Part shown: one piece after another, positions 19,401-37,954 of the stretch
How the letters are laid out: each line of letters begins with the position of its first letter
Numbering within the stretch: the first letter of the stretch is position 1
Assembly (NCBI GenBank): GCA_963699545.1
Contig: CAVOUE010000004.1
Coordinates: 64,001-128,000 of the forward strand
DNA from: Nitrospirota bacterium
Lineage (GTDB): Bacteria; Nitrospirota; Thermodesulfovibrionia; Thermodesulfovibrionales; UBA9159
Direction: 5' to 3'
DNA: 64,000 bases
Made by a program: the position numbers and the translations under genes
The notes under the pieces: generated by a model
The model's input: the letters and a program-made list of their open reading frames with translations, nothing else
Told to the model about the DNA's origin: nothing
Database searches by the model: none

Positions 19401-21578
19401 TCAGTTCCCTCTCTCCTGCCTGTCCCCGAGGCTCAGATAGGTGAAATACGTCAGCAATACGCGCTTCACATACGTCTTCGTCTCATCATAGGGTATATCC
19501 TCAATGAATTCATCGTGTGACCTGTACTTTCCTTCCTTTACCCATTCTCTCACCCTGTCGTGTCCGGCGTTGTAAGCGGCAAGGGCTAGGGGCAACGAGC
19601 CGAATTCCTTCAGGAGGGAGTTGAGGTAATACGCACCCACGGTGATATTTGTTCTGACATTGTAGATATCTGAAGCATCGTCGATATCCATTTTAAGATG
19701 TTTGTTGAGACTGTCAGCGGTGTGCGGCATTATCTGCATGAGGCCAAGGGCCCCGGCGATCGAACGGGCGTTGGGGTCGAAGCGGCTTTCTTCCCTCATC
19801 ACGGCAAGAAGGATAAAGGGATCAAGGGTATAGAGGTCGGATATTTCGCTCACTGTCTGCCAGTATGCGAGAGGGTAGAGGATGTCCGCGGTGTCTGTGC
19901 CGTTACTCCATTTCAATCCTCTTTCGTCAGAGAACCGTGATACCATGGTCATGGACCGTTTGTACGCTCCTGCTGCCTGCATCATACGGCACAGGAATAT
20001 GAGGACGTCAGGCTTTGTGACCCTGTTCGACATGCGAACCAGCTCGCCAACGGCATCATCTTTCATCCCCAGCTCCATCAGGATGGTGAAGCGCTCATAG
20101 AGGGGAAGGACGTCCGGGGAAAGCTGCTGCGGCTCTAAGCCCCGCCGGCCGTCATCAGGAGATAGACGGGCGGAACGTGTCCATGATGCCCTGCTCGCAG
20201 GGCGACCGCTGAAATTGTCCATATCCCTGACATATGCCAGCATCCGGTAAAAATCCTTACTGAGACCCTTGCCGTCCGGAAGCGTGGCGGCCTTGTCACC
20301 CTGGGGGCGCGGGCGTGTATCTTCCCCGCGATCTTCCGGACTGCCAGAAAGGCTTTCCTGATCACCGGACCGCTGCTTCCAGTAGGAATACCGGGAATTG
20401 GGATATTGGTCGACCAGCGTTGCCAGTATCCCGGCCGCTTTCCTGTAGTCACCGGTCCGATACGAGGACCAGGCAATGCCCCAGAGAACATCTTCAGTGA
20501 GCGAGGGGTATCTCTTTTTCACATCCTGGTAAATATCCAAGGCTTCTTCTGTCTTGCCGTCCCTCCGCTTCTTTGCCGCGTAGGCGATGAGAAGGGATCC
20601 GGCGCGCTTATCTTCCATCGACACAAGCCGTGAGACCGTTTCTCTGAATGCGCCGAGATCTCCTGCCCTGTAAAGAGAGCGAGATCCGTTGTAGAGGTCC
20701 CCGGCCTTTAAGAAAGCCTCAGCGGCCTCCTTGTATTTCTTCTGCCTGAAAAGGGCCTGAGCCAGATTCTTCAGTACCTCTTCCCTGAAAGGCTCCCCGG
20801 CTGCCGGGAGGATCTTTCTCAAAACCGCTTCCGCCCTCTTATGTTCGAAGGCCTTCATCAGATTTGATGCCTTAGCAAGCATGTCCCCCGGCGTTACGTC
20901 AGAGGGCTCCAACTCCTGATAGGCCAACTCTGAAAATGCTGAGTTGCCGGTATATATCTTAACGAACAATTTCCTTGCCCTGTCCGTCTGTCCCAGTTTC
21001 TTCAGCAACCGTGCATAGGAGAAGGTCATCTCGGCGTCATCGGCATAATCCCCGACATATGCCTCCAGGTACTTAAGCGTCTCCTCACTTTTCTGAGGCG
21101 GGAGAGGGGTCAGGGATCCGTTTCCAGGGGACTTCTGATTCTGCCGGGCTGCGTCCCTGGTGAGAAGGATAGTATCGATCTGTAATGCCCTCGCTCTTCT
21201 CTTAAGCGGTGAATCCGGATACGTTTTCAAAAGCTCTGCGATGCAACGGGAGGATTCGTCAAAGCGCTCCATTCTGTTGTATGCCTGTGCCATAAAGAAG
21301 AGGGTATAGTCACCGATGACCGGGAGTCGGGCATAGGCGGTCCGGAGGCTCTCAACCGCCTCATCATACGTTCCTTTTTCCAGTAATTCCTTTCCCTTCC
21401 TGAGGGCCGAGACGGAATCAGTCGAACTTGTGCTCCGAACGCCCGCCGGGGCGGGGGAGGGGGAAAAAAGGACGCAGATAAAAAGCGCGAAGAAAAAACA
21501 CAAAAAGGGAAGCAGGAAAGATGCCTTTTTGAACGGGTATTCTCTTGTGCGACGGTGGTATCTATATCTTTTCATGTG
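19401..21578 (-). CDS. TPR-containing soluble lytic transglycosylase (Slt-like); start approximate
   Basis: AVMREESRF, GALGLMQIMP, ALAAYNAG and IPYDETK.YVK motifs; helical repeats in the N-terminal part. Confidence 0.92.
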   Translation of the reverse strand, partial: HMKRYRYHRRTREYPFKKASFLLPFLCFFFALFICVLFSPSPAPAGVRSTSSTDSVSALRKGKELLEKGTYDEAVESLRTAYARLPVIGDYTLFFMAQAYNRMERFDESSRCIAELLKTYPDSPLKRRARALQIDTILLTRDAARQNQKSPGNGSLTPLPPQKSEETLKYLEAYVGDYADDAEMTFSYARLLKKLGQTDRARKLFVKIYTGNSAFSELAYQELEPSDVTPGDMLAKASNLMKAFEHKRAEAVLRKILPAAGEPFREEVLKNLAQALFRQKKYKEAAEAFLKAGDLYNGSRSLYRAGDLGAFRETVSRLVSMEDKRAGSLLIAYAAKKRRDGKTEEALDIYQDVKKRYPSLTEDVLWGIAWSSYRTGDYRKAAGILATLVDQYPNSRYSYWKQRSGDQESLSGSPEDRGEDTRPRPQGDKAATLPDGKGLSKDFYRMLAYVRDMDNFSGRPASRASWTRSARLSPDDGRRGLEPQQLSPDVLPLYERFTILMELGMKDDAVGELVRMSNRVTKPDVLIFLCRMMQAAGAYKRSMTMVSRFSDERGLKWSNGTDTADILYPLAYWQTVSEISDLYTLDPFILLAVMREESRFDPNARSIAGALGLMQIMPHTADSLNKHLKMDIDDASDIYNVRTNITVGAYYLNSLLKEFGSLPLALAAYNAGHDRVREWVKEGKYRSHDEFIEDIPYDETKTYVKRVLLTYFTYLSLGDRQERGN

Positions 21579-21721
21579 CATCCGCTGAAAAAAAATCATT
21601 CAGAAGTCGTTTCCATTATATCAGTTACCCGTGCCGGATTCAACAGAAATAGGCACTTTGCTTATCAAGATCGTCAAGGAGGAGATTTGACGGTTCCCCT
21701 CCATACAATTTATAATCCACC

Positions 21722-22480
21722 ATGGACCGCGCCGTAAGGAGAAGGATCCGCAAGCATATTGACGCTTCTTTCGAGGACATGGAGGATCTTGTCGCCATCG
21801 AGAAAAAAGTGAGGATATCCGTGAATGGCAGAGAGATCGTCGGTCTTTTTTGCACGCCGCACATGGTAAAGGAACTCGTGGTTGGTCTTTTAATGACCGA
21901 GGGGATCATCAGGGGAAACTGGTGTGCCGACAGGATGAGCATTCTGTTCGGCGAGGAGGTCCTCGTGGACGTCCCTGCGGAAGGAGAGGTTATTACCGAA
22001 GGGAAGACCATTACCTCGGGGTGTGCGGGCGGCGTCACCTTCGAGAAGAAGATCGATGCGGGAACGATAACGGACCCTTTCACCATCGACAGGAACAGTT
22101 TGAGGTACATTTTTAGCGATTTCCAGGCGCGGTCGGAACTCTATAAGCTGACGGGTTGCGTCCACAGTGCGGCGCTTTCTGACGGGAAGGTTATCCTCTG
22201 TTTCGCCGAGGACATTGGAAGGCACAATGCAGTGGATAAGGTCATCGGTTACGCGCTCCTCGAAAATATTCCTTTTTCGGGAAAGATCCTGCTGGCCAGC
22301 GGGAGGATATCCTCAGAGATATCCTCCAAGTGTTCCCGGTGGGGCATCCCCATCCTCGCGACGCGCACGGCACCCACCAATCTCGCCGTGGAGATCGCGG
22401 AGAAGAGAGGCGTCACCGTCGTCGGGTTCGTGAGGGGCAACCGGTTCAATGTATATACACACCCGGAAAGGATAACGTAG
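21722..22480 (+). CDS. fdhD: Formate dehydrogenase accessory sulfurtransferase
   Basis: TSGC, TGCVHSAAL, EDIGRHNAVDKVIG, SGRISSE, GFVRG..FNVYT. Confidence 0.96.
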   Translation: MDRAVRRRIRKHIDASFEDMEDLVAIEKKVRISVNGREIVGLFCTPHMVKELVVGLLMTEGIIRGNWCADRMSILFGEEVLVDVPAEGEVITEGKTITSGCAGGVTFEKKIDAGTITDPFTIDRNSLRYIFSDFQARSELYKLTGCVHSAALSDGKVILCFAEDIGRHNAVDKVIGYALLENIPFSGKILLASGRISSEISSKCSRWGIPILATRTAPTNLAVEIAEKRGVTVVGFVRGNRFNVYTHPERIT

Positions 22481-22582
22481 AGAAGATCACCAGTCTGTCC
22501 TCCTATTTCGACAACTCGATCCCTTCTTATCTTAGCTTATTCCGTTCTTCAAAGAACCTCTGCAAATTTCGGGCAGATGAGT

Positions 22583-22606
22583 TATAATGATCATAGCGAC
22601 CATTAT
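22583..22606 (+). promoter_or_regulatory. -10 box with overlapping operator palindrome of the Phd-PIN module
   Basis: TATAAT overlapped by ATAATGATC-N5-GACCATTAT. Confidence 0.6.
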
Positions 22607-22641
22607 GATTGATATGGTAGAGACTTTAAGGAGGTTTCAGT

Positions 22642-22929
22642 ATGTTGAAAAAGATATCCGCGATAAAAGTCAGACAGAACCTCGGGCAGGTGATGAACGA
22701 GGTTGCTCTCAAGGAGGACGAGTATATTGTTGAAAGGGCCGGCAAACCCTTAGTGGCGATAATACCGATTGACCAGTATCAGCGCCTGAGGGGCGAGAGG
22801 GAAGATTTTTTTAGAATGGTGGGTGAAATACAGCAGGAGGCTGTTCGGTCAGACAGAAAGATTGTTGACTCGGAGATCGAAGAGGCGGTTAAGGCCTATC
22901 GGAAGTCCAAGAGCAAGACGAGGAAATGA
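22642..22929 (+). CDS. Phd/YefM family antitoxin
   Basis: ISA..VRQNLG..MNEV and IVER.GKP.VAII. Confidence 0.9.
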   Translation: MLKKISAIKVRQNLGQVMNEVALKEDEYIVERAGKPLVAIIPIDQYQRLRGEREDFFRMVGEIQQEAVRSDRKIVDSEIEEAVKAYRKSKSKTRK

Positions 22930-23354
22930 CAAGAGTCGTCATCGACGCCAACCAGTTCGTAAGCGCCCTGCTCAAACCTGAATCCAACCCCGCCGATGTT
23001 CTTGCACTTGCGCGCCAGGGTAAGATTCAGCTGGTCATATCGCCTGAAATTGTTGATGAGATGAGGGCGGTGCTCCTCTACCCCAAAATCATGAAGCGCC
23101 ATCGCAGGACTTCAGCGCAGATCGAACTCTTTCTGAAGAGATTGCTGAAGACCGCGGCTGTCACTCATAGCGGGCCGAGGCTCGATGTTGTCAAGGACGA
23201 CCCTTCAGACAACAAATATCTGGAATGTGCTGTGGTGGGCAGGGCGGATTTCATTGTCTCAGGGGACAGTCACCTCACTGACCTGGGGACCTTCCGTGGC
23301 ATAAAGATAGTGACCCCGGCGCGTTTCCTGAGAACCATTAAAGAAATAAAGTAG
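22926..23354 (+). CDS. PIN-domain toxin
   Basis: RVVIDAN..VSAL, DDPSDNKYLECA, DFIVSGD.HL; ATGA overlap with the antitoxin. Confidence 0.92.
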   Translation: MTRVVIDANQFVSALLKPESNPADVLALARQGKIQLVISPEIVDEMRAVLLYPKIMKRHRRTSAQIELFLKRLLKTAAVTHSGPRLDVVKDDPSDNKYLECAVVGRADFIVSGDSHLTDLGTFRGIKIVTPARFLRTIKEIK

Positions 23355-23374
23355 CCTGTCCCCTTTTCAGTTCT

Positions 23375-23556
23375 TCCTGGCCACGTGCACGGCGCCCACC
23401 AATCTCGCCGTGGAGATCGCGGAGAAGAGAGGCGTCACCGTCGTCGGGTTCGTGAGGGGCAATCGGTTCAATGTGTATACACGTCCGGAGAGGATCGTTT
23501 AGGAGTCAAGGGCAGGACTTTTTAAGCCGCAGAGGAATCTACCTGATAACTCGCAC
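23375..23556 (+). repeat. fdhD 3'-end copy R1 (128 bp coding plus ~54 bp tail)
   Basis: Aligns to 22353-22480 with mostly synonymous changes, followed by tail GAGTCAAGGGCAGGACT...ACCTGATAACTCGCAC. Confidence 0.97.
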
Positions 23557-23670
23557 GGCAGCTATCTCTCTAAATGTTTCTATGTCCGATAGTAATGCTG
23601 AGAGTCCGCAAAGGTATTCAGTCGAATCAAGGGCATTGCTTCTTTCCACCACACAAAGCATAATAAGAGC

Positions 23671-24033
23671 ATGAAAGTGGTGGAAAAAGATAAGGTCATA
23701 AGTGGGATGCTTCGCGATGAACTCAAGCGTTGTCAGGAGATGTTTGACAGACTTGAGAAGTCCGTATCTAAACTTCCGAAAGGTGTGATAAGCGAGAGGA
23801 AAAAGCGCTACAAGGATAAGGTGTATTCTTACTATTACCTGAAGTATCGTGAAGGGGAGAAAGTTATCGGCAAGCATATACCTAATAAGGAGATGCAGGA
23901 GATTTTAGAAAAGCTTGCCATGAGGAAAAAATATGAGAAGGAAATGCAGTCCTACGAAAAGAAAATTGCCTATCTGAATAAGATACTGCAAGCAGGCAGA
24001 AGAAGGGGACATGGAAGTATCGCTCACGAATAA
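23671..24033 (+). CDS. Basic coiled-coil hypothetical protein, partner of the downstream nucleotidyltransferase
   Basis: LPKG.I...YYYLKYREG.KV..KHI pattern; overlaps the next gene; own promoter. Confidence 0.75.
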   Translation: MKVVEKDKVISGMLRDELKRCQEMFDRLEKSVSKLPKGVISERKKRYKDKVYSYYYLKYREGEKVIGKHIPNKEMQEILEKLAMRKKYEKEMQSYEKKIAYLNKILQAGRRRGHGSIAHE

Positions 24034-24694
24034 GAACATTTTCCCGTCAGAAGTCCGAGAACTTTTGAGCGCATTTTCTTTGGTAGGATTCTTCAATGAA
24101 TCCCTTCTGATTGGAAGCTGGGTGATGCCCCTGTATCAGGAAGCTTTTGGCATCCCTTATGTCTTACGCACGCTGGACATAGATTTTGCGGTCAAATTTG
24201 CCCCCTTAGGCGGAGCAAAGAAAGTTGACCTCGAAAAGGTCATCACTGATCTCGGCTATATTCCTGTTGTCATGCAGTCAGGCATCCGTCGGTTTACTCA
24301 CGAAAATTTCACTGTTGAGTTCGTTGCACATCGTAAAGGTGGGCGGGATGAGCAGGTTGTACCAGTAAGAAAATGGAACATCACGGCATCACCCCTTCCT
24401 TTTGTTGATCTTCTCCTCAGCTTCCCGTTCACAGCAGATTTTGGAAACTTCAAGGTAAGGGCGCCACTACCTGAAGCCTTCTTCGTCCATAAATTGATTA
24501 CGGCCCAGAGAAGGCTGGGCGAGAGCAAGAAAGATAAGGACCTTGAGCAATGTGCCGCCATTGCCCGGCAGCTCGATACCGATCGGTTGGATTCGGTTAT
24601 AAGGTCACTGACGCTCAGTACGAAGACACGGAAAGCGCTGAGATCTTCATGCGAGGTAATCGATTTTCCTCCACAAAGGTTGGGGTTTAAGTAA
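24011..24694 (+). CDS. Nucleotidyltransferase-fold protein (GSU2403-like; putative TA component)
   Basis: LIGSW, RTLDIDF, P.PEAF.VHKLI.AQRR...KK.KD..Q. Confidence 0.8.
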   Translation: MEVSLTNKNIFPSEVRELLSAFSLVGFFNESLLIGSWVMPLYQEAFGIPYVLRTLDIDFAVKFAPLGGAKKVDLEKVITDLGYIPVVMQSGIRRFTHENFTVEFVAHRKGGRDEQVVPVRKWNITASPLPFVDLLLSFPFTADFGNFKVRAPLPEAFFVHKLITAQRRLGESKKDKDLEQCAAIARQLDTDRLDSVIRSLTLSTKTRKALRSSCEVIDFPPQRLGFK

Positions 24695-24809
24695 ATATGT
24701 GGTGGAAATGATGACAGCAAAATTGTTCTCTGCGCGCGAAAAGAAGGATATAACAAAGAGCTGTCAATCCTTGGGATGTGTTTAATAACGGGATGTGTCC
24801 TAATATTTT
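24589..24809 (+). repeat. Copy A of ~220 bp direct repeat (nucleotidyltransferase 3' end plus downstream)
   Basis: About 8 differences from 26892-27113 by manual alignment. Confidence 0.97.
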
Positions 24810-24813
24810 CACG

Positions 24814-24908
24814 ACCGGTTCAATGTGTATACACACCCGGAGAGGATCGTTTAGGAGTCAAGGGCAGGACTCTTCAAGCCGCAGAGGACCCCACCTGATA
24901 ACTGAGAC
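24814..24908 (+). repeat. fdhD 3'-end copy R2 (41 bp coding plus tail)
   Basis: ACCGGTTCAATGTGTATACACACCCGGAGAGGATCGTTTAG followed by the shared tail. Confidence 0.97.
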
Positions 24909-25065
24909 CCCGGTTATTTCAGCCAGACCGTTGATTTCTGAGAATAACTGTTATGGGAGAGGAGTCGCTTTGCTTCCCAATACCTTTCTGAAAATCGTAC
25001 GGGAGGCGACCATGCCAGCCTCGAACGATCTTGCCCTGCATCGTCCGTTGTTCTTTTTTGCTGCC

Positions 25066-25095
25066 TTGACTAATGGTAACACTTATGTTACTATT
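25066..25095 (+). promoter_or_regulatory. Sigma70 promoter with operator palindrome; leaderless start
   Basis: TTGACT-17-TACTAT; inverted repeat AATGGTAACA/TGTTACTATT; ATG at 25101. Confidence 0.75.
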
Positions 25096-25100
25096 CTGAA

Positions 25101-25427
25101 ATGGAGAAAATAAAAGTAGTCGAGTATTTAGAAGATGGAGTGTCTGTTTTTGGAAAGTGGTTCTCCGGTCTTGATGCGCAGTCGGCCGCTAAGGCGGCCA
25201 CAGCTTTGTACCGACTTGAGCAAGGCAATCTCTCTAACGTGAAATCGGTAGGGCAGGGAGTTTCGGAATACAAGATTGATTTTGGGCCGGGATTCAGGAT
25301 TTATTTTGGTCGTGAGGGCAATACATTGGTTGTCCTGCTTGGAGGAGGCTCTAAGAAGACACAGAGCAGGGACATAAGAAACGCCCAAACAATGTGGGCG
25401 CGATACAAGAAGGAAAAGAGAAAGTAA
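25101..25427 (+). CDS. RelE/ParE-superfamily addiction module killer protein
   Basis: RLEQGNLSNVKSVG.GV.E.KIDFGPG.RIYFG and LLGGG.KKTQ..DI. Confidence 0.92.
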   Translation: MEKIKVVEYLEDGVSVFGKWFSGLDAQSAAKAATALYRLEQGNLSNVKSVGQGVSEYKIDFGPGFRIYFGREGNTLVVLLGGGSKKTQSRDIRNAQTMWARYKKEKRK

Positions 25428-25436
25428 GGAGGTACT

Positions 25437-25760
25437 ATGCCGATTACGAAACAGTTTCGCAAAACAGTTTTGAAGCGTGCCGAAAATGATGCGGAATTCC
25501 GCAGACATTTGCTGACAGAGGCGGTTAGTGAACTGATCACGGGAGATCTTAATGCTGGCAAATCAATTCTCCGTGATTATATTAATGCGACGATCACATT
25601 TGAGGGGTTAGCCAAGAAACTCAACAAATCGAGCAAGAGCGTTCATCGTATGCTTGGATCTGCGGGTAACCCGAGAGCTGAGAATATTCTGGATATCATC
25701 AAGATGCTTCAAGCGCATGAGCATGTCACACTTCAGGTAAGGGCAAAACGGGCCGCCTGA
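25437..25760 (+). CDS. Addiction module antidote, HTH protein
   Basis: LRDYINATI.F..LA and HRML...GNP...N; downstream of the killer gene. Confidence 0.88.
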   Translation: MPITKQFRKTVLKRAENDAEFRRHLLTEAVSELITGDLNAGKSILRDYINATITFEGLAKKLNKSSKSVHRMLGSAGNPRAENILDIIKMLQAHEHVTLQVRAKRAA

Positions 25761-25823
25761 GAGATGACTATTGAATTAATGGTAATGTTGATACTTGGTA
25801 AGAGTCCTTCCTCCTCGTCAAGT

Positions 25824-25925
25824 AGGGGCAACCGTTTCAATGTGTATACACACCCGGAGAGGATCGTTTAGGAGTCAAGGGCACGACTTTTCAAGCCGCA
25901 GAGGACTCTACCTGAAAGTCCGCAC
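25824..25925 (+). repeat. fdhD 3'-end copy R3 (48 bp coding plus tail)
   Basis: AGGGGCAACCGTTTCAATGTG...GATCGTTTAG followed by the shared tail ending ACCTGAAAGTCCGCAC. Confidence 0.97.
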
Positions 25926-26050
25926 GTTTTATTGATCTCGGCGATGAGGAATGCCGGGTGAAACCTGGTGGTCCAAAGAAAGAATGAAGGTCTGCGCCCA
26001 AATGACATCAGATGACATCTTCCGTACTGAGAACTGCCTTAAACATGTCC

Positions 26051-26082
26051 TTGACAGCATGTGTATATTGTGATAATATACA
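26051..26082 (+). promoter_or_regulatory. Sigma70 promoter with operator palindrome; leaderless start
   Basis: TTGACA-17-TAATAT; inverted repeat TGTATATT-N5-AATATACA; ATG at 26086. Confidence 0.78.
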
Positions 26083-26085
26083 GCA

Positions 26086-26352
26086 ATGATAGATCGGCAG
26101 CGCATCGAAGGCTTTGAATGGGATCAGGGCAATGCACGAAAGAATGAGAAGCACGGTGTTACGCAGGCAGAAGCGGAGCAGATATTTGTCAATCAACCGT
26201 TGCTGTTATTGCCCGACGAGGAACATAGCCATAGGGAGCTGCGATTTCATGCCTTGGGCAAGACAAATGAGGGACGCCTTATACACATCTCTTTCACTTT
26301 AAGGGACAATGGGACACGAATAAGAATAATTTCAGCGCGAGCTATGCATTGA
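26086..26352 (+). CDS. brnT: BrnT family toxin, probably truncated by a premature TGA
   Basis: FEWD..N..KN.KHGV...EAE..F and RIRIISAR; KERSIY continues in frame after the TGA. Confidence 0.88.
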   Translation: MIDRQRIEGFEWDQGNARKNEKHGVTQAEAEQIFVNQPLLLLPDEEHSHRELRFHALGKTNEGRLIHISFTLRDNGTRIRIISARAMH

Positions 26353-26368
26353 AAAGAAAGGAGTATTT

Positions 26369-26641
26369 ATGGGCAGGAGACATCTTAAATCAATACCGAA
26401 ATTCAAGTCTGAAGCTGAAGAGCGGAAGTTTTGGGAAACTCATGACTCAACAGATTACCTGGACTGGTCGAAGGCAGAGCATGTGGGATTTCCGAATCTG
26501 AAGTTGTCCACTCAAGCAATATCTATCAGATTGCCAATTTCGCTGCTGGAACAGATAAAAATAGAGGCCAATAAACGCGATGTTCCCTATCAGTCTCTTA
26601 TCAAGGTCTGGTTGACGGAGAAGGCGCATCACAAAGCATAG
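26369..26641 (+). CDS. brnA: BrnA/CopG-like antitoxin
   Basis: PKFKSEAEERKFWETHDSTDY, ISIRLP, A.KRDVPYQSLIK. Confidence 0.88.
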   Translation: MGRRHLKSIPKFKSEAEERKFWETHDSTDYLDWSKAEHVGFPNLKLSTQAISIRLPISLLEQIKIEANKRDVPYQSLIKVWLTEKAHHKA

Positions 26642-26891
26642 GATTCCTGTTTGCGGCTTGCTTGAGACAAAGAAGAGGACAGGCGGCTGTCCCTTTTGTC
26701 CCTTTTCTCTGCCGGGGATCGGAGAAGTCGTTTCACTTGAGAACAAATACTATAGACGCATTGAAATTATTGGGGAATACTGGTAGAACTATAGTTGTCG
26801 AAGACGGGAATTAGGTATCAGATCGTCAGGAAAGGTTGGAGCGGAAAGAGGCTCAGATGGAAAAACGGGATGTGTCCCCAATATTTTATCA

Positions 26892-27113
26892 GGATTCGGT
26901 TATAAAGTCACTGACGCTCAGTACGAAGACACGGAAAGCGCTGAGATCTTCATGCGAGGTAATCGATTTTCCTCCACAAAGATTAGGGTTGAAGTAACTA
27001 TGTGGTGGAAATGATGAAAGCAAAATTGTTCTCTGCGCGCGAAAAGAAGGATCTAACAAAGAGCTGTCAATCCTTGGGATGTGTTTAATAACGGGATGTG
27101 TCCCTAATATTTT
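26892..27113 (+). repeat. Copy B: orphan 3' end of the nucleotidyltransferase gene plus downstream
   Basis: Direct repeat of 24589-24809. Confidence 0.97.
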
Positions 27114-27199
27114 ATGTGTACACACACCCGGAGAGGATCGTTTAGGAGTCAAGGGCAGGACTTTTCAAGCCGCAGAGGACTCCACCTGATACTCGACAC
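27114..27199 (+). repeat. fdhD 3'-end copy R4 (32 bp coding plus tail)
   Basis: ATGTGTACACACACCCGGAGAGGATCGTTTAG followed by the shared tail. Confidence 0.97.
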
Positions 27200-27430
27200 C
27201 ACAGACAATCTCGCCAAGAGTGTTGAGTTCCAAAAAAAACTGTTACATTCAAGGTCCTCTATTCCCCCCACGCTAAGATTAAAGACCTGACCCTCTCTCC
27301 TCTCTCTCAATAGACGGGCGTCCTACCTGTCGGTAGAGTAGAGAAGTGGAAATGTTGACAGAATGAGGGCCGTTGCCGTTCCCTTTCCGAACAACACTTG
27401 GCTTGTCATTGCAGAAATTAAAGGACTCTT

Positions 27431-28342
27431 TCAGGGGTTGACCTCCAGCAATAGTTTCAGTTGCTCAAGTATTCCCGCTGCGATAAGACTGCCTGCGGTA
27501 CCCTCTAGAATGCTCCTGATGGTATGTAGGCTCTCCATGATAATCTTCGTCTTAGGTTTCGGAGAGTTCGCCTGCGTTTCAGCCGTGGCAATCTCAGCAG
27601 AGAGTTCGTTTCTTATCTCAGGGGCCAGGTTCAGGCCGGCGACCGTCCTTTTTATCTCCTTCAAAACCGACAAGACCTTCGCCACGTCGAGCTCGTTGAC
27701 GGTCATCGTCTGCGAGGAATTCCGAGTGCCTTGCTGAAGCTGAGAATGCATCATGCTCCCTATGTAGGTCTGTATATGGTAAACATTTGACGCCGCAACA
27801 CGTTGTTCTTCCTTCGTGAAGGTCAAGTCTTCTCCAAGGATGCCATCTTGTTCCAACTTCAATGCCCATTTCAGAACCGCATTTCGTACGGCATCAATTA
27901 TCTTGGCAAGATCTGTAACGCTGATTTGAAGCACTGGCTGTACAGAAGCCCCACCCATTGCAGACCTCAGCGACTCCTCCATCTTCTTCTCAAATTCAGT
28001 CCAGATGACGGTCTCTGCATTTGCTTCTTTTTGTAGGCTGGCTATCTCCGAGATCGGCTGGTTAAAATTCATCGTGGATATTTTCTCAGCTTTTCCCGGG
28101 TCAGGAATCCTCACGGGTACGAGACCCTGAACTCGGTCCAGACACTTCAGAGAGCCTATGACCTTGCGATAGTGAGGTATTTTGTTGTCTTTTTTGTATC
28201 CGTTCAACTCAAGTTCGATCCATTCTTGAAACTCCTGTACCCCGATCTTCGTCGCAACGGCGAGCGCCTTTCGGAGAAGATCTGTAACCGGCACCGTCGA
28301 ATCTATCGCTTCTTTCTGTAGCTCCAGAACCAATGAAGACAT
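27431..28342 (-). CDS. AbiTii-domain protein, copy 1
   Basis: SLVLELQ.E..D......DLLRKAL.VA.K.G..EF..W...EL.GY and P.YR. Confidence 0.85.
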   Translation of the reverse strand: MSSLVLELQKEAIDSTVPVTDLLRKALAVATKIGVQEFQEWIELELNGYKKDNKIPHYRKVIGSLKCLDRVQGLVPVRIPDPGKAEKISTMNFNQPISEIASLQKEANAETVIWTEFEKKMEESLRSAMGGASVQPVLQISVTDLAKIIDAVRNAVLKWALKLEQDGILGEDLTFTKEEQRVAASNVYHIQTYIGSMMHSQLQQGTRNSSQTMTVNELDVAKVLSVLKEIKRTVAGLNLAPEIRNELSAEIATAETQANSPKPKTKIIMESLHTIRSILEGTAGSLIAAGILEQLKLLLEVNP

Positions 28343-28838
28343 TCCTATGCCTGCCCCTTCATTTTCTCGATGATCTTCATGGTCTCCACTCTGACGGTGC
28401 AGACCCGTCGGGGGTGACGGATTTTCCGTTTGTCCCAAGCAGGGAGATTTCGGTCACGAGTTCGAGTCTTTCTTATGGGCGTATTTGTTCAAGAGATTGT
28501 AGGATGCATTTCTGACCGTGGTCTCGTTCCTTGATCCTCCGAATTGGTGGATTCGGTCGAGCTTGGCATAATACTGATTGATGAGCTGAATAGACAACGA
28601 CTATCTTTTCTCCCTTTTCATATGCAACAACGTAGTCACTCAAAATTGTACTACAAAGGGAATAGGACATTCCATATTTTTCAGGACATTCAAGCATGGG
28701 GACCTTGGGTGTGGTTCTCGATATTAAAGGTGAGCTTTTTAGGGCTGATTAAGTTCTTCTTGAGTGAAGTCTGAAGACCTGACCATCAGGCGTCTCCTTA
28801 AGGGGATCGGCGGAAGACGACGGCTGCCCGTTCTATCG

Positions 28839-29732
28839 TCACAAGAGACAGTTCAATTTCGCCAGCAGCCCTGAGGCTATCAGACTGCCCGCGGTGCCTT
28901 CCAGAATGTTCCTGACTGTGTGGAGGCTTTCCCTGATGATCCTATACTTGGGCTTCGGGGACTTCGCCTGCGTTTCCGCCGTGGCGATCTCGGCGTCAAG
29001 CTCGTCCTTCGTCTCGCGGGGCAGGTTAATATCCGCCACGGCTTTCTTGATCTCGTCCAGGACCGACAGGACTTTCGAAACGTCCAGTTCATTGACGGTC
29101 ATCGACTGGCTGCTGTCGCGGGTGTCCTGCTGGAGCTGAGACTGCGTCATGCTGCCGATATAGGTTCCGATGTGATAGGTTCCGGATGATGCTGCGTGCT
29201 TCTCTTTCAGCGTAAAGGTCATGTTCTCCCCGGTGATGCCATCCTCTTCGAGCTTTAGCGTCCAGTTGAGGATGACGTTTCTGACTGAGTCAATTATTCC
29301 TCGCAAAACCGAAGGATCGATAATGAGGGCGGGCTTGAGGGCGGCAGCACCCTGGAGTTCGATCAGCATTTGCTCCTGGTCAGGCGGATAACTCATGACA
29401 ATGATGCTCGACTTGTCGTTTGTCAGAAGCGATTCCAGTTCTCCCACTGCTTGGCCCTGAGGATAGCATGAGACCACTTCGGCAAGCTTTGCTGGGAGAC
29501 GAAATTCAATCCAGCCGTTAAAAGGGTTCCAGCACCTTACCTGTCCCCTGACATTTCGATACTCGGGGATGGCAAGTCCCTTGCTGTATCCGCCAAGTTC
29601 CGACTCCGCCCAGAGCTGAAACTCCTTTATCCCCAACTTTCTGGCAACGACGAGCGCCTTGCGGAGAAGATCGGTGATCTGCACTTTCGAGTCGAGCGAT
29701 TCTCTTTGAAGTTCCAGTACCAGTGATCCCAT
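28839..29732 (-). CDS. AbiTii-domain protein, copy 2
   Basis: Same N-terminal signature plus WNPFNGWI; C-terminal third highly similar to copy 1. Confidence 0.85.
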   Translation of the reverse strand: MGSLVLELQRESLDSKVQITDLLRKALVVARKLGIKEFQLWAESELGGYSKGLAIPEYRNVRGQVRCWNPFNGWIEFRLPAKLAEVVSCYPQGQAVGELESLLTNDKSSIIVMSYPPDQEQMLIELQGAAALKPALIIDPSVLRGIIDSVRNVILNWTLKLEEDGITGENMTFTLKEKHAASSGTYHIGTYIGSMTQSQLQQDTRDSSQSMTVNELDVSKVLSVLDEIKKAVADINLPRETKDELDAEIATAETQAKSPKPKYRIIRESLHTVRNILEGTAGSLIASGLLAKLNCLL

Positions 29733-30230
29733 GTTCAATCTTACTACAAACGGGTCTTTTTCCTCTATCTCCCATTGAGTGCGCTGCAATCTTTCCGGTA
29801 TAGATGTCACCTGAAAGTCCTCACCTTAGACCAATCGCCAAGGACGTTGATTACCAGAAATAATTGTCACACTGGAGGATCCATTATGCAGCTTCTTAAT
29901 GCCTTCATAGAATCCTACTGGAATCACTCTGGAATCCCCATTGACCTTATTGTCAAGAAGGTGTAGATTTGAAATAACCATCACATCATAGGGTCATCCC
30001 ACTTATCTAAATTCTTGGAAGAACACTTTTGCTGTGCGCTGGAAGACAGATGGATTGACCAAGGAACGGAAGCGGTAGTAGAATTTGATAGATCAAAGGG
30101 GCTCTCTCACGCTCTGATCAGCATTGATGTGTAAACTTAGGGATCTGGAATAGTGTCATGAATGGGTCTTAAGGTACACGGAATCGTGGGAAGTACTAGC
30201 GACTTGATACCCTCATGGTAGGAGGACTAT

Positions 30231-33200
30231 TTGGCTGTTGACCCAATTTCTTGGGCAGTTAATTTTGGTCTAACGACACTAGCAAGAGGCACCTTTGAGG
30301 TGGCCTTTAAGAGCCTCTCTGCTAAACTTGAGGGTGCCGTAAGAGACTGGAGCAACGAACTACCTGCCGATGTCCAGTTTAATACCGAAGCGTTATTCGA
30401 TGGTCTAAGACGGGACTACGAGAAGTCAGACTTCCCTGCGCGTACAGCCCCCGGTAAGGAATTTGAAGCGTCTCGCATTCCGACGATGGACATGTGGCTT
30501 CAGGCGCTTCTTGAAAGATGGCAATTTGTGCGCAGAGGTAACAACGTACAAGAGTTCTTCAAGCAGCCAATAGATGTGGCCGAAGCTCAGCTGCGGACTC
30601 TATCTAAACGTCTTGAAACAGTTTGCGCACAGAACGAAGAGCTATTTCGGGTTACCACTTACGAACTGATATCAGCTTTGGCTGCTAAATTTGTTCAGCC
30701 AGAGCATCCGCATTTCCCAACGGCCCTTGTCGATCAGAAAATTGAGGATGAGATCAATGTATGCCGGAAGTGTCGCTTCTTCGAAGAGTTTGACACGGCT
30801 GGGTCTTCTCTGAGACTCGCAAGAAGTCTTCTGGACGGAGAACTGTCCGGCGGTACAAATGCGGCAAGGAGCCGAGCACTATCTTGGTGCGTTCGATTTT
30901 TGGCACGAATCGAAGACGTAGAAGAAGCAGAAGAGTATCTCAGAGTTGCGAAAGCATTAGGACTTTGCCCTGAAATCGAAATCGCCAATGCCTTCATCCT
31001 TTCGCAGAAGGGTAATAAGCACTCTGCTCTAAGTGCCCTGGCTGAGATCGATTTGCCAATATCTCGATCCGCGGCTTTGATGATTGTTGCGCATCACGAT
31101 GGCCCAAAGGCGGCAATTGACTGGCTTAATGCCGCAGGGATCGAAGCTGCGGACCTTGATCCTGACGGTAAATTTTTTCTCTTAGTGCGTTATCTTCAGC
31201 TTTCTCGTTGGGAGGCAGCTCTGAAATGCCTGGAGATAGTGACAGAAGATGATTTGATAGAGACACCGGTCCTCCATCGCATGATGGCAATCACACGCCT
31301 ACTACCTGCGGTCCCCGCCGAGTTTCGCGCTGTTGTGCTTAATCAGCTTCCGTTTGAAGCGGCAGACTTCCCACTTGCCTCAGACTCGGCTGCTATTGCA
31401 ACTCGCAAAGTAGCGCAACAGCACTTTGTGAATGCTGCGGAGTCAGCACGCCAGTTAAACTGTCCTGTTGCGGCAAGAATAGATGAGGAGTACGGACTTT
31501 GGCTTCAACTAAGAGATCCCGAAGAATTTGGAGAGGGAAAGAAGCATCTCGAGGCTAAGCTTCGTGATCCCGAGTCAGCTCTTCGCCTCGTTCATCTTGG
31601 CCTCCAATTTGGGATCAAGCTGGACTTGGAAGCAGTTGAAAGGGAGATTGAGCGGCAAGTTGCTCTCAATGGAGGAATGACTCGTGACGCGGCAATTGCC
31701 CGCTTTGCTTTGGCTTTTACCCAAAAGACTCCAGAGGACATTGCGAGCTATATCGCCCGGCATCGTGACGAGCTTGCCGACTACTTTGATAAGAAATCTA
31801 TGCAATTTCTTCAGATCGAGATGCTTGCTCGCGCTGAGCTGCCAGAGAGAGCGACTCAGTGTCTGGAGAGTCTTTTGCGAGATGGGCTTTCCGAAGAGGA
31901 GGAAAGTCGTCTTCGGCGAATAATTGCTGAAGCAGAAGGGACTGATCCGGTTGAGGCACGAAAAGAACAGTTTATTAATACAGACTCCTTGGGTGATCTG
32001 ACAAGCCTAGTTAACGAACTCGAAAACAGGGGGGGATGGGATGGCCTATGCGAATACGGTGAAATGCTGTTTGACCGAACGCACTCTTTGCACGATGCTG
32101 AGCGTCTGGCTAGAGCGTTTGCCAACGCACAGAAGAATGAAGAACTCGTAGCATTTCTAAGAAATAACGAAACTTTCTTACTGCAGTCTATGAAGCTGCA
32201 AATGCTTTATTGCTGGTCTTTGTACCATGAGGGCGCGTTTCTGGAGGCTCGCGCAGAATTGGTAAAGCTAAGTGAGGATAGAGATGATCCTAACTATCGA
32301 GCACTACAAGTAAATCTAGGAATCGCCTTGGGCGATTGGAATTCTATTTTAGCCATTATAGCTAATGAGTGTCGGGAAAAAGATAAGAGGGGAGCTGAGG
32401 AGCTGATACGTACAGCTCACTTGGCATTTCATTTGGGTTCGACAAACGCCAAAGAGTTGGTTTTTGCAGCGGCATCTAAAGGCAGTGAGGACGCTGGCAT
32501 ATTGACTGCTGCCTATTTCTTGGCTTCAAACGCTGGGTGGGAAGACGATCCAACGGTTTTTCAGTGGCTTCAAAAGGCCGCAGCGCTTTCTGGCGACGAA
32601 GGTCCAATCCGAAAGATGACTTTGAAAGATATTATAGACCGGAAACCAGAGTGGGAGCGTCGAGAGTCTGTTGCATGGCAACAGTTGAGCCGTGGCGACG
32701 TGCCTATGTTCGTTGCGGCTCAAGCGCTAAATAGATCTCTTGTTGGTTTTATGCTTTTCCCCGCTCTGGCAAATTTGTCGGAGAAGGATCCAAGGCGGAG
32801 AGCGAATATTGCTGCTTTTAGCGGCAGACGACATGAAAGACCTTTTAATATTGGAGGATTAATTGGAATAGATGCCACAGCCTTGCTCACCCTGAGTTTC
32901 CTTGACTTGCTTGATGAGGCATTAGACGCTTTCGACAAAGTCCATGTGCCTCATTCGACCCTTACATGGCTTTTTGAGGAGAAACAAAAAGCTGCATTTC
33001 ATCAGCCAAGCAGAATAAAGGAGGCACACCTATTGCGTAATTTGCTCGCTACAGATGCACTAGAAAAGCTCTTGCCTAATACTGTGCCGGATAGTGATTT
33101 GTCTGCTCAGATTGGCGAGGAACTATCACTGCTAATAGCAGAGGCCGAGAAGGCTAGAAACCAGGACGATCCGCAGCGCATCGTTGTTCGGCCATCTCCC

Positions 33201-34418
33201 GTTCATCGGGTCGGATCTCTGATGGAGGAGGAGGCTGATTTGACAGCACACGCTGCTGTGTTGAGCAGTTGTCAAGCCATCGTAGACAAATTGAGGGGCC
33301 AGATTACAGCCGAAGACGAAAAGAAGGCGCGCCTTTATTTGCAAATTCACGAGAAGCCGTGGCCGCATCAGCCGGAGATAATGGATGGGGCAATACTATA
33401 TCTGGGTGATTTGTCTGTAACTTATTTTCTTCATCTTGGAATTCTGCAAAAACTACGAGCCGCGGGTTACAGGCCAGTTGTTTCACCGAGAACGGTGTCC
33501 GAAGCAAACGAACTGATTTCTTATGAGAGCATTTCTTCCAAGGTAAATGACGCAATAGAACGCATAAGGGCTGCCGTAAACTCACGAATAGAATCAGGGA
33601 AAATAATAGTAGGAAAACGAATCAATACCGATGAGCCAATAGAACGCTCAATATCAGAACATCCAACCGTTGCTGTCATAGGCCTGGCAAAACAGTGTGA
33701 TGCGATCATTGCCGACGATAGATTCCTCAATCAGCATGCCAATATCGCTGATCCTAGCGGTCTGAAGCCCGTATTTTGCACGTTAGACCTTCTGCACGCA
33801 CTTGCCGCCGCTAGGTCTGTAAGTCCTGAAGAGCTATTGGAACATAGAACACTCCTTCGACGGGCTGGGTACTTCTTTATGCCCGTAATCGAGGAGGAAC
33901 TGCGACATCACATAGAAGCTTCTACAGTCAAAGATGGCAAGGTCATTGAAACAGCTGAACTGAAAGCGATTCGCGAAAACATCCTTTGCGTCCGAATGAG
34001 GACTTGGCTTCAGCTTCCAAAAGAGGCACTCTGGTTGCAAATGTTGCTAACGACGTTCCTCCGAGTTCTGAAGGGCCTATGGAGAACCGGCGCTGAGTTT
34101 ACCAAGACTCGAACACGGGCAGACTGGATCATCGAGCAGATTGACATGCTTGGCTGGGCTCACAGCCTCGCTGGCGAAAGCAGAGATAACATGGTCAAAA
34201 CTGGGCGAGGTGCCCACATTCTGTTGCTTCTGGCACCCCCTGCAGAAACAGTGCCAGAGGTCGTGAAGGAGTACTGGCTTTGGCTGGAAGACAGGGTCTT
34301 AACTCCAATCAAAGAACAAGATCCTGATCTGTATTCCTGGATCATTGAATGGGAGCTGCAGCATATCGCCGATATAGCAGGGACGGAGTTGCCCTTGGGG
34401 GGGCAAAATGGCCAATAA
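30231..34418 (+). CDS. 1395-aa helical-repeat protein with C-terminal PIN-like region(s); candidate defence protein
   Basis: AGGAGGA RBS and TTG start; long helical region; GIDATALLTL..L..L and AIIADDRFLN acidic PIN-like motifs. Confidence 0.7.
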   Translation: MAVDPISWAVNFGLTTLARGTFEVAFKSLSAKLEGAVRDWSNELPADVQFNTEALFDGLRRDYEKSDFPARTAPGKEFEASRIPTMDMWLQALLERWQFVRRGNNVQEFFKQPIDVAEAQLRTLSKRLETVCAQNEELFRVTTYELISALAAKFVQPEHPHFPTALVDQKIEDEINVCRKCRFFEEFDTAGSSLRLARSLLDGELSGGTNAARSRALSWCVRFLARIEDVEEAEEYLRVAKALGLCPEIEIANAFILSQKGNKHSALSALAEIDLPISRSAALMIVAHHDGPKAAIDWLNAAGIEAADLDPDGKFFLLVRYLQLSRWEAALKCLEIVTEDDLIETPVLHRMMAITRLLPAVPAEFRAVVLNQLPFEAADFPLASDSAAIATRKVAQQHFVNAAESARQLNCPVAARIDEEYGLWLQLRDPEEFGEGKKHLEAKLRDPESALRLVHLGLQFGIKLDLEAVEREIERQVALNGGMTRDAAIARFALAFTQKTPEDIASYIARHRDELADYFDKKSMQFLQIEMLARAELPERATQCLESLLRDGLSEEEESRLRRIIAEAEGTDPVEARKEQFINTDSLGDLTSLVNELENRGGWDGLCEYGEMLFDRTHSLHDAERLARAFANAQKNEELVAFLRNNETFLLQSMKLQMLYCWSLYHEGAFLEARAELVKLSEDRDDPNYRALQVNLGIALGDWNSILAIIANECREKDKRGAEELIRTAHLAFHLGSTNAKELVFAAASKGSEDAGILTAAYFLASNAGWEDDPTVFQWLQKAAALSGDEGPIRKMTLKDIIDRKPEWERRESVAWQQLSRGDVPMFVAAQALNRSLVGFMLFPALANLSEKDPRRRANIAAFSGRRHERPFNIGGLIGIDATALLTLSFLDLLDEALDAFDKVHVPHSTLTWLFEEKQKAAFHQPSRIKEAHLLRNLLATDALEKLLPNTVPDSDLSAQIGEELSLLIAEAEKARNQDDPQRIVVRPSPVHRVGSLMEEEADLTAHAAVLSSCQAIVDKLRGQITAEDEKKARLYLQIHEKPWPHQPEIMDGAILYLGDLSVTYFLHLGILQKLRAAGYRPVVSPRTVSEANELISYESISSKVNDAIERIRAAVNSRIESGKIIVGKRINTDEPIERSISEHPTVAVIGLAKQCDAIIADDRFLNQHANIADPSGLKPVFCTLDLLHALAAARSVSPEELLEHRTLLRRAGYFFMPVIEEELRHHIEASTVKDGKVIETAELKAIRENILCVRMRTWLQLPKEALWLQMLLTTFLRVLKGLWRTGAEFTKTRTRADWIIEQIDMLGWAHSLAGESRDNMVKTGRGAHILLLLAPPAETVPEVVKEYWLWLEDRVLTPIKEQDPDLYSWIIEWELQHIADIAGTELPLGGQNGQ

Positions 34419-36424: not shown

Positions 36425-36752
36425 CTGTGAGAAAGGTGCATTAGACTCTTGAGCGCGGTCTTTTTTGTGAAGCAGGAAGGGGAGGGCTACTTTATCCCGT
36501 ACTTCTGCAGCCTATGCCTGAAGGAACGGAAGGAAAGGTTCAGCAGTTTTGCGGCGTCGGTCTTCACCCCGTCGGTAAGGGTAAGGGCTTCGAGAAGGTA
36601 TCGCTTCTCGAGTTGAGTTATTAATGTTTCCAGGTCGATGCCCTCTTTTGTCAGATCGGGAACAGCCTTTGCTTCAGGCGAGGAACTTACTATCTCTGAT
36701 GGCAGGTCCTCGACCGATATCTCCTCGTGCTCTGTAGACATGAGAAGGATTC
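36425..36752 (-). pseudogene. Displaced copy of the pilR 3' end (~265 bp coding plus 62 bp downstream)
   Basis: Direct repeat of 37895-38220 encoding the same Fis-type HTH C-terminus, with diverged codons. Confidence 0.97.
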
Positions 36753-36766
36753 CTCAATAGCACGTT

Positions 36767-37024
36767 TCATTTCCACATGGTTTCATCTATTGTTTCAAAA
36801 TCCTTTATCACCTTCTGGAACTCTTTATAATCCTTATCGCTCCAGGTTCCTGCGAGATGGTTTAAATCATTATACACAACCGTCCTTTTTTTCTTTTTTA
36901 GCCCCAGTTCTTCCTGAAGAAGTTTTACCAACGCTGCATTAACGCTTGTGCCTTCCTGTTTTGCTTTTTCTTTTAGAGCCGTTACCGTCAGCTCATCGAG
37001 TCCTCTAATTGTCATCGTTGACAT
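36767..37024 (-). CDS. FitA-like ribbon-helix-helix antitoxin
   Basis: MTIRG.D......LK..A...G.SVN and DL..LAGTWS; AGGAGG RBS. Confidence 0.85.
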   Translation of the reverse strand: MSTMTIRGLDELTVTALKEKAKQEGTSVNAALVKLLQEELGLKKKKRTVVYNDLNHLAGTWSDKDYKEFQKVIKDFETIDETMWK

Positions 37025-37037
37025 GCTTGCCTCCTGT

Positions 37038-37740: not shown

Positions 37741-37954
37741 TTATTTGTCTATCCATTCAAAATAATAAGAATTATACCCATAATAAGTATTAAAAGAATA
37801 GAGCGAGTTAATTTCCTGGGCTTGGCCGATGCTTGTTGCAAGGATTTCCACAAGTAACCCTCAGAATTCTGAAGACCATCTGAAGTGCTTGTTCCTGTGA
37901 GAAAGATGCATTAAACTCTTGAGTGCGGTTTTTTGTGAAGCAGGAAGGGGAGGG

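Follow-up and report, generated by a model that had tools for sequence, protein, structure and literature searches.

In Escherichia coli, e14 and phage 21 replace the 3' end of icd, and in Streptococcus thermophilus the ICESt1/CIME elements accrete in tandem at fda. At rhs and cdiA, orphan C-terminal toxin/immunity modules lie behind an intact gene, in rows that homologous recombination within a conserved stretch builds and reshuffles. Long target duplication of restriction-modification genes was reportedly described by Nobusato et al. in 2000 (in Gene 259:99, as cited in a later paper). In the accessible passages on the insertion of restriction-modification genes with long target duplication, the repeats measure 46-423 bp and often span stop codons (PMC2853133), and the insertions have no mobility genes and are mostly from competent species (PMC2853133; Furuta, Abe and Kobayashi 2010). 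The term itself occurs in the accessible part of PMC2654758 only in a cited title. Here we describe an array of four small cargo modules behind the gene fdhD, separated by displaced copies of the fdhD 3' end, in a 64,000-nt window of a Nitrospirota genome. The window is the whole stretch of DNA that was analysed (C4:64001-128000), and positions without a contig prefix refer to it. The displaced ends are most likely scars of recombination with the DNA of related strains, not the work of an integron-like enzyme.

The host genome (G000) is a metagenome-derived bin of 3.04 Mb in 13 contigs, 86.9% complete with 5.1% contamination. The closest FdhD homologues are labelled Nitrospirae/Thermodesulfovibrionales in their source databases. 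A genus relative (G001), a family relative (G015) and the 10 closest metagenome loci (L021-L028 among them, L021 being the closest relative) were used for comparison. Contigs of four public sequencing runs from four studies (X1-X4) were also compared with the window.

Displaced fdhD ends and their cargo

The live fdhD gene is intact, and four displaced copies of its 3' end (R1 to R4), each followed by a tail, alternate with the four modules (Table 1). The copies were identified by repeat finding, MAFFT alignment and whole-genome BLAST; their matches, with E-values of 1e-24 to 1e-43, are confined to this C4 locus in the 13-contig genome. The stretch copied in R1 is the last 128 nt of the live gene (22353-22480), and 121 nt of R1 align to 22353-22473 at 93% identity. 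R2, R3 and R4 are 94-96% alike and have a common tail, and overall the repeats are 88-96% identical among themselves and 93% identical to the fdhD end. Every copy ends in PERIV whereas the live gene ends in PERIT, and the stop codon is TAG in the copies as in the live gene (22478).

By family match, the modules appear to be type II toxin-antitoxin pairs. The pairs recognised by Pfam are PhdYeFM with PIN_3, BrnT with a CopG antitoxin, and Gp49 with a helix-turn-helix (HTH) partner. In the same family tests the nucleotidyltransferase (NTase) pair matches NTP_transf_8 only, and its coiled-coil partner matches no Pfam family. Promoter scans gave promoter-like sites ahead of the HigB-like gene (25066-25094) and of the BrnT-BrnA pair (26051-26079), the latter also having a terminator-like site at 26677-26692.

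A single direct duplication of 367 nt, at 88% identity, comprises the segments 24589-24953 and 26892-27245 (BLAST and alignment). It spans the last ~200 nt of the NTase gene, a REP-type hairpin, R2 or R4, the tail and ~60 nt beyond, so that a truncated NTase remnant stands before R4. R2 and R4 both lie within this nested duplication and are therefore not independent integrations.

A preliminary description of this DNA, made from the letters alone, had held that four displaced fdhD ends with a shared tail separate four modules. Repeat finding, MAFFT and BLAST confirm this, down to the stop positions and the four left ends; Pfam upholds the labels given to the cargo, and codon comparison the contrast of PERIV copies with a PERIT gene. 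It had also taken the copies to differ from the live gene mostly synonymously and to be former working gene ends, with which the codon counts and the third-position-biased differences given below agree. Its proposal that R1-R4 stem from different alleles has to be given up, as all are of one PERIV-plus-tail type, and the nested 367-nt duplication contradicts its four separate integrations.

The same layout at three other genes

A genome-wide search for local direct repeats gave three cases besides fdhD. On the other side of the island, a pair of VapC and a FitA/VapB-like RHH antitoxin lies between the live 3' end of a pilR-like sigma-54 regulator gene and a displaced copy of that end, a layout that mirrors the fdhD array. 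On C6, the end of a glyoxalase-family gene occurs three times, with a Fic module and a HicAB pair in the intervals (C6:15857-17984); HicB matches its family, and the match of HicA is weak and below the cut-off. Also on C6, a P-type ATPase gene has its final 573 nt repeated downstream, where the displaced end is still an open frame of 166 amino acids. The cargo there consists of an open reading frame of 197 amino acids and a RAYT-like Y1 transposase of 282 amino acids with an HTH tail.

The repeats are about 90-190 nt long at fdhD, 328 nt at pilR, about 100-110 nt at the glyoxalase gene and 573 nt at the ATPase gene, with inserts of 0.7-2.5 kb. On the same strand, the fdhD, pilR and glyoxalase repeat blocks have no common word of at least 9 nt, and share only chance-level 8-mers, such as ACCTGATA between the fdhD tail with its adjoining element E (see below) and the glyoxalase gene. 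The layout is thus general: it is found at four loci in one genome, at unlike genes and with unlike cargo. Six further repeats (C10:129062, C12:3538, C12:108609, C3:64572, C3:359745 and C5:310040), to which no gene end could be assigned and which show no phase bias, were omitted from this count.

An HNH and NERD pair and a REP are found beyond the last glyoxalase repeat, not beside the gene. Phase-biased long direct repeats also occur at C3:78305-78753/83060-83509 (32/13/14), where they flank a glycosyltransferase-like gene of 1459 amino acids, and at C4:186644-188359/190655-192370 (66/24/29), within a duplicated gene of 572 amino acids.

Divergence of live and displaced ends

Compared with live fdhD, the synonymous and non-synonymous codon differences are 7/3 in R1, 3/2 in R2, 4/1 in R3 and 4/2 in R4, with boundary codons counted as non-synonymous. 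By codon position, the differences between fdhD and R1 are 2/2/9. The live and displaced pilR ends differ at 27 sites, distributed 7/1/19 over the codon positions, in 17 synonymous and 8 non-synonymous codons; the phase split of the pilR repeat is 1/8/21 (p about 1e-4), and that of the ATPase pair is 4/22/8 (p about 5e-4). Free decay after duplication in place should hit all codon positions alike. This is not the case at fdhD, pilR and the ATPase gene, which argues that the two copies diverged as working alleles of different lineages.

The live fdhD end is a mosaic relative to L021. Mismatches to this relative number 55 in the 631 nt of the gene body and 25 in the last 128 nt (Fisher p 0.00075), with a step at about 22352, where R1 has its left limit. 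Against L022 and L023, the mismatches show an even distribution. A PERIV terminus is present in 19 of the 120 best FdhD homologues, the first of them at 86% identity; among the 18 closest, 17 end in PERIT and one is truncated. PERIV is thus a natural terminus of FdhD in more distant relatives.

Empty sites in relatives and cassettes in other samples

In both G001 and G015, about 70-150 nt separate fdhD from the convergent sigma-54 regulator gene, and the same empty site is found in seven of the 10 closest metagenome loci (L021, L022 and L024-L028). None of these nine sites has a second fdhD end, the tail or element E, and no second fdhD end occurs in any of the 10 metagenome loci. In L023, from another lineage, a type I restriction system occupies the gap between fdhD and pilR, accompanied by a RAYT and a Fic gene. 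This gap therefore holds different inserts in different lineages and behaves as a hot spot. At the DNA level, R1 with E matched the genomes of 40 relatives only over the first 41-42 coding bases, in three genomes. The exact pattern of the R tail had no match among metagenome contigs, and none of 10 candidate stretches for the NTase protein on viral contigs was confirmed. Comparison with genus relatives gave no exact empty sites for the solo E units, as homology ends at the gene ends or is too weak.

In X1-X4, cassettes occur singly on contigs, at about 90-98% identity and in flanking sequence that differs from the window. Matches to the Phd-PIN cassette begin at 22550 in X1 and X4 and cover 22611-23362 in X2. 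An X2 contig of 8,475 nt covers 23586-24725 of the NTase cassette, with an E-like word before it. The BrnT-BrnA cassette is covered from 25906/25910 to 26769/26868 in X1 and X2, and partly in X3 and X4. A REP-like word in X4 stands directly before a truncated 3' part of the PIN gene (loose end 23191). Two X4 contigs, 23191-23385 with 2 differences and 23356-23505 with 13, touch the joint between PIN and R1, with fewer than 31 letters on one side. The HigB-like/HTH part and the R2 and R3 joints have little or no cover in the four runs, which are uninformative there. Since the cassettes occur on contigs with unlike flanks, the modules are discrete units that exist in other contexts.

Adapter sequence was seen at the end of G002:C204 (L008), just behind the fdhD of a relative, and also at Logan contig ends, namely the X4 loose ends at 26284 and 27200. 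The fdhD/pilR hot spot tends to break short-read assemblies.

The REP hairpin and element E

Three junctions of the array stand directly behind a REP-type hairpin. Its core is GGGATGTGTCCC, with an A-rich stretch before it and a T-rich run after it. With at most one mismatch, this core has 47 matches genome-wide, against 10-15 in three shuffles. An inverted pair (C3:267478/C3:268223) brackets a Y1_Tnp gene at C3:267809-268141, so that a many-copy palindrome and an inverted pair around a Y1 transposase gene, as in REP/RAYT systems, are both present. The REP/REPIN-type family has ~35 good copies, many in inverted doublets, including C3:280378/280555, C3:313603/313729 and C3:495470/495621.

Behind R1, the tail leads into element E, an imperfect hairpin of ~75 nt whose ends are inverted (CCTGnnnACTC). 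Behind R3 and its tail, 17 nt that resemble the beginning of E extend the block to 25926. Elsewhere in the genome we found four solo units of ~110 nt, made of E plus REP, and four partial copies. The solo units (C3:796701-796844, C5:233238-233381, C5:352236-352384 and C12:92986-93134) lie mostly just behind gene ends. E was not found in relatives, and the E and REP patterns each had no exact match in 185,579 species genomes. Rfam gave no match in window positions 20000-30000 at E-values up to 1, and the tail and E fold no better than shuffles (z -1.8 to +0.4). The joints at pilR, the glyoxalase gene and the ATPase gene have neither E nor REP.

A second copy of the NTase cassette lies on C5, where C5:354850-353578 is 97.7% identical to 23541-24810. 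The stretch common to both copies runs exactly from the word ACCTGA to the REP hairpin, and its left end in the window is the start of E at 23541. On C5 (C5:352236-354854) two copies of E enclose this second cassette along with a DsrC-like gene and two genes of unknown function; the region also has a 44-nt stretch resembling an 'empty' unit, formed by the ACCTG word and REP.

Searches for recombinases

No dedicated recombinase is encoded in the island, as profile searches bear out; the preliminary description had recognised no integrase or transposase in the array. All six tyrosine-recombinase matches of the genome lie outside C4: two Xer-like proteins, the two halves of a split xerC beside hslVU, one phage-type protein (C5:404532) and one fragment. 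The best match to the integron integrase TIGR02249 in this 87%-complete genome scored 70.8 bits against a cut-off of 265, and none was on C4. A genome search gave no resolvase, and PF00589, PF01797, PF00239 and PF00665 have no match within the window; rve transposases occur on C4 outside it. The R''/R' core words of attC (RYYYAAC ... GTTRRRY) were not seen by eye in the repeats, which are homologous to the fdhD end, unlike what defines attC. Neither a tyrosine or serine integrase in the array nor a short att core shared among the three loci compared was found, as an integrase-mediated element would have. A homing-endonuclease cassette was considered and rejected, with none of the eight cargo proteins of the fdhD array matching a DNA endonuclease family (HNH, LAGLIDADG or GIY-YIG).

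The rest of the island

The 15.5 kb between fdhD and pilR hold the four modules, two AbiTii genes, a TPR-GreAB-C-PIN type pair and VapBC (Table 1). The two AbiTii paralogues are adjacent, and their 3' parts are 73-79% identical. The members of the TPR-GreAB-C-PIN type pair have 1395 amino acids (HTH_upst_double_PIN, PIN-TPR-GreABC) and 645 amino acids (Permuted_GreAB-C), and this type of conflict system gave no PADLOC match. The pilR-like regulator is in two frames within its AAA+ domain (38700-38735), and xerC (C5:305141-305922) and comEC (C3:98762-99608) are also split; these frameshifts may be real or may be indel errors of the assembly.

Table 1. Positions of the gene ends, cargo modules and neighbouring features at the four loci.
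Feature	Positions	Strand	Evidence or remark
Live fdhD, 252 aa, ends PERIT	21722-22480	+	Pfam FdhD-NarQ PF02634, E 5e-68
Phd-PIN cassette (Phd 22642-22929, PIN_3 22926-23354)	22550-23374	+	Pfam PhdYeFM and PIN_3
R1: 128 nt of fdhD 3' end (PERIV, stop 23500) and 38-nt tail	23375-23540	+	Repeats, MAFFT, BLAST
E copy, ~75-nt hairpin element, starts ACCTGATA	23541-23615	+	nhmmer E 1.7e-19
Coiled-coil protein (23671-24033) and NTP_transf_8 nucleotidyltransferase (24011-24694)	23671-24694	+	Pfam
REP-type hairpin ('D5' motif), right end of NTase cassette	24784-24812	+	
R2: 41 nt of fdhD end (stop 24852) and tail	about 24814-24894	+	Repeats, MAFFT, BLAST
Gp49/HigB-like toxin (25101-25427) and HTH partner (25437-25760)	25101-25760	+	Pfam; HTH weak
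R3: 48 nt of fdhD end (stop 25869) and tail	25824-25909	+	Repeats, MAFFT, BLAST
BrnT (26086-26352) and BrnA/CopG antitoxin (26369-26641)	26086-26641	+	Pfam
REP-type hairpin abutting truncated NTase 3' remnant, end of BrnT-BrnA cassette	26861-26889	+	
Second copy of nested duplication: NTase 3' remnant, REP (27087-27115), R4, ~60 nt beyond	26892-27245	+	BLAST, alignment
R4: 32 nt of fdhD end (stop 27143) and tail	27114-27185	+	Repeats, MAFFT, BLAST
Rest of island: AbiTii paralogues and TPR-GreAB-C-PIN type pair	27431-36345	both	Pfam, PADLOC
Two AbiTii/AbiTi-type paralogues	27431-28438, 28839-29810	-	Pfam, PADLOC
TPR-GreAB-C-PIN type pair	30231-34418, 34408-36345	+	Pfam
Displaced pilR 3' end, 328 nt (266 nt coding and ~62 nt tail)	36425-36752	-	90% to live end
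VapC (PIN, 37038-37436) and FitA/VapB-like antitoxin (36767-37114) between pilR ends	36767-37436	-	Pfam
Live pilR-like sigma-54 regulator 3' end and tail, stop 37955	37895-38220	-	
Glyoxalase-family gene	C6:17562-17984	-	Last ~95-110 nt and 15 nt; three copies in all, 91-94%
P-type ATPase gene	C6:291106-292995		Last 573 nt copied at C6:294949-295521, 94%

Origin of the arrays

We propose, with a probability of roughly 55%, that the island grew by accretion through homologous recombination at the fdhD/pilR hot spot. DNA of related strains carrying a gene end, a tail and cargo would enter the cell, and general homologous recombination inside the gene end would make the first joint. The second may be a homologous exchange with a repeat already flanking the donor cargo (Campbell-like, 'ends-in'), or else an illegitimate joint that creates a new left limit and may fall in an older cassette, as at the NTase remnant. 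The route through a donor-flanking repeat needs no illegitimate step, and would leave the left joint of R2 nearly the same as that of R4. Whatever lies at the joint would be copied, which could explain a nested duplication that includes part of an older cassette. The gene would stay intact with a new or hybrid end, the old end being stranded downstream as a dead fragment whose left limit is fixed by its own event. Repeated and nested events would stack four modules behind fdhD and one behind pilR. It is plausible that the newest cassette adjoins fdhD, and the persistence of the toxin-antitoxin cargo is probably due to a penalty on its loss when repeats recombine. The genome has ComEC and DprA genes; most control genomes have both, so they are weak evidence on how such DNA might be taken up.

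In the preliminary description, a unit of gene end plus cargo integrates by a single crossover in fdhD, whose end serves as the attachment site of an integron-like archive. The recombination of such a unit within fdhD is retained here. The integron analogy is abandoned, because there is no IntI, the repeats are homologous to the neighbouring gene, and they fold no better than shuffles. Nor is the fdhD end a special site, given that the layout recurs at three other genes with no shared core motif.

Several points weigh against accretion by homologous recombination. The few differences among the glyoxalase copies have no third-position bias (phases 4/5/0). The live pilR end has 27 mismatches to L021 in 266 nt, as in the rest of the gene, against 36 in 266 for the displaced copy, while at fdhD both the live and the displaced ends are far from L021; as the live end at pilR looks native and the displaced one foreign, a single simple geometry does not fit both sides. 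Genus relatives, at ~70-85%, are too diverged to give exact empty sites at the two C6 loci. None of the X1-X4 contigs listed bridges an R block under a rule of 31 letters. No donor, circle or structural variant was seen, and the source reads are absent from the public runs, where the best share of sampled words was 0.11. Moreover, left ends fall at the same ACCTGA word on C5 and in X1 and X2, where the BrnT-BrnA contigs begin matching at 25910 and 25906, respectively, and three right ends fall at REP. This regularity exceeds what plain homologous recombination would give, and leaves room for a site-specific component.

Such a component is at the centre of an unlikely alternative, in which the cassettes are non-autonomous and move in trans through a RAYT or some unrecognised recombinase that acts on E at the left and REP at the right. 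The gene-end copies would then be part or by-product of the attachment reaction, amounting to an integron-like capture of a new type. It would account for the exact ACCTGA-to-REP extent shared by the NTase copies, the BrnT-BrnA contigs of X1 and X2 that begin at ACCTGA, the four solo E plus REP units at other loci, the three array junctions directly behind REP and the REP-like word before the truncated PIN part in X4. The enrichment of REP over shuffles, its inverted pair around Y1_Tnp on C3 and the RAYT carried as cargo at one of the four loci are in line with it as well. It is not preferred because the pilR, glyoxalase and ATPase joints have neither E nor REP. The Phd-PIN and HigB-like cassettes also have no REP end, the folding scores and the Rfam search lend E no distinction, a by-product of transposition leaves the third-position-biased divergence unexplained, and with zero exact matches of E and REP in the species genomes there is no comparative support. 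A more specific form, which seems quite improbable, is an undescribed, integrase-independent capture system of Thermodesulfovibrionales-type bacteria, in which an HUH enzyme inserts self-promoted toxin-antitoxin cassettes bounded by E and REP behind gene ends and duplicates the end. If true, the arrays would be ordered archives analogous to integron arrays, built by a REP-associated HUH enzyme. It is rather doubtful, too, that the array consists of remnants of successive integrase-bearing islands in the fdhD 3' end, reduced to their addictive toxin-antitoxin genes. Such islands classically leave a replacement 3' end with synonymous differences and a displaced old end, the fdhD/pilR gap does hold different inserts, as in L023, and toxin-antitoxin genes resist deletion. 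Yet no integrase or fragment of one is on C4, four decays to about 1 kb, all in one orientation, would be unlikely, and the nested duplication holds cassette DNA and no att site. Blocks of 90-573 nt at four genes would also need several integrases, and the genome has only one of phage type (C5:404532) beside the Xer-like genes.

The resemblance of R2-R4 (94-96%, with a shared tail), the 367-nt segmental duplication inside the array and the unbiased differences of the glyoxalase copies could all result from tandem duplication or unequal crossing-over of the fdhD end in situ, followed by neutral decay and replacement of the intervening DNA. We give this little chance, because only one of the 27 pilR differences is at codon position 2, the end of live fdhD is foreign relative to the body of the gene, and the four unrelated modules have their own promoter-like site or are found on other contigs. 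An assembly artefact that strung together strain variants of the hot spot is very improbable. The sequence is a metagenome bin with 5.1% contamination, its source reads are not among the public runs, and conserved genes (pilR, xerC and comEC) are split between frames. Against this, the repeats are short (90-190 nt) and 4-12% diverged, thus easy to assemble through, the left joints are specific to each cassette, so that a gene-end fragment really follows each of them, and the 3.04 Mb of the bin fall into 13 contigs. The recurrence of the layout at four loci, on two contigs, and the X4 contigs of another study that touch the joint of PIN and R1, if with fewer than 31 letters on one side, also speak for a true arrangement.

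Hot spots of defence and toxin-antitoxin genes between core genes are often without mobility genes, and how the cargo enters is debated. The accessible part of PMC4615327 gives no mechanism. Under accretion by homologous recombination, the displaced gene ends would be a direct scar of entry, pointing to recombination within the flanking core gene with DNA of other lineages, and arrays could form by the stacking and nesting of such events. The order of acquisitions in time might be read from these scars. Being pseudo-ends, the fragments may mislead annotation pipelines and binning tools. That a 3-Mb genome has four of these loci suggests a widespread and under-described mode of gene gain.

Comparison with known systems

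Like integrons and CALINs, the fdhD array is a one-directional row of small cassettes rich in toxin-antitoxin genes, with repeats of about 60-190 nt. It differs from them in having no IntI, repeats that are gene ends and not attC hairpins, and cassettes with their own promoter-like sites. The polarised row of displaced gene ends and cargo behind an intact gene resembles rhs/cdiA; there, the displaced end is the variable toxin tip, whereas here a conserved housekeeping terminus is displaced, and separate self-promoted operons make up the cargo. With the elements at icd and fda the locus shares an incoming gene end, mostly synonymous differences, the stranding of the old end and a tandem pile-up. 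A tyrosine integrase and a short att core serve those elements, while here the contig has no integrase, the blocks are long and differ between the four loci, and the units measure only ~1 kb.

The closest likeness is to long target duplication, as far as the accessible parts of its description go. In both cases, small addiction-type modules lie between long direct repeats whose length varies (about 90-573 nt in this genome), the target is duplicated, often across the stop codon, the gene stays whole, no transposase or integrase is involved, and relatives have an empty site. Repeats of more than 30 bp around an insert of less than 20 kb, the empty site and the lack of a mobility gene in the window all agree with this class; the exception as to mobility genes is the ATPase locus, where a RAYT is itself the cargo. 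The differences are that the cargo here comprises type II toxin-antitoxin pairs and a RAYT and not restriction-modification genes, that one gene end bears four insertions, stacked and nested, where single insertions are described there, and that the two copies differ as alleles do. A literature search, mostly of listings and a few passages, found nothing linking long target duplications to toxin-antitoxin arrays. The general phenomenon is already known. What is new is that the cargo is of the toxin-antitoxin kind, that insertions are stacked and nested behind a single gene end, that one genome has four such loci, and that the copies diverge as alleles do, in a way pointing to recombination between lineages.

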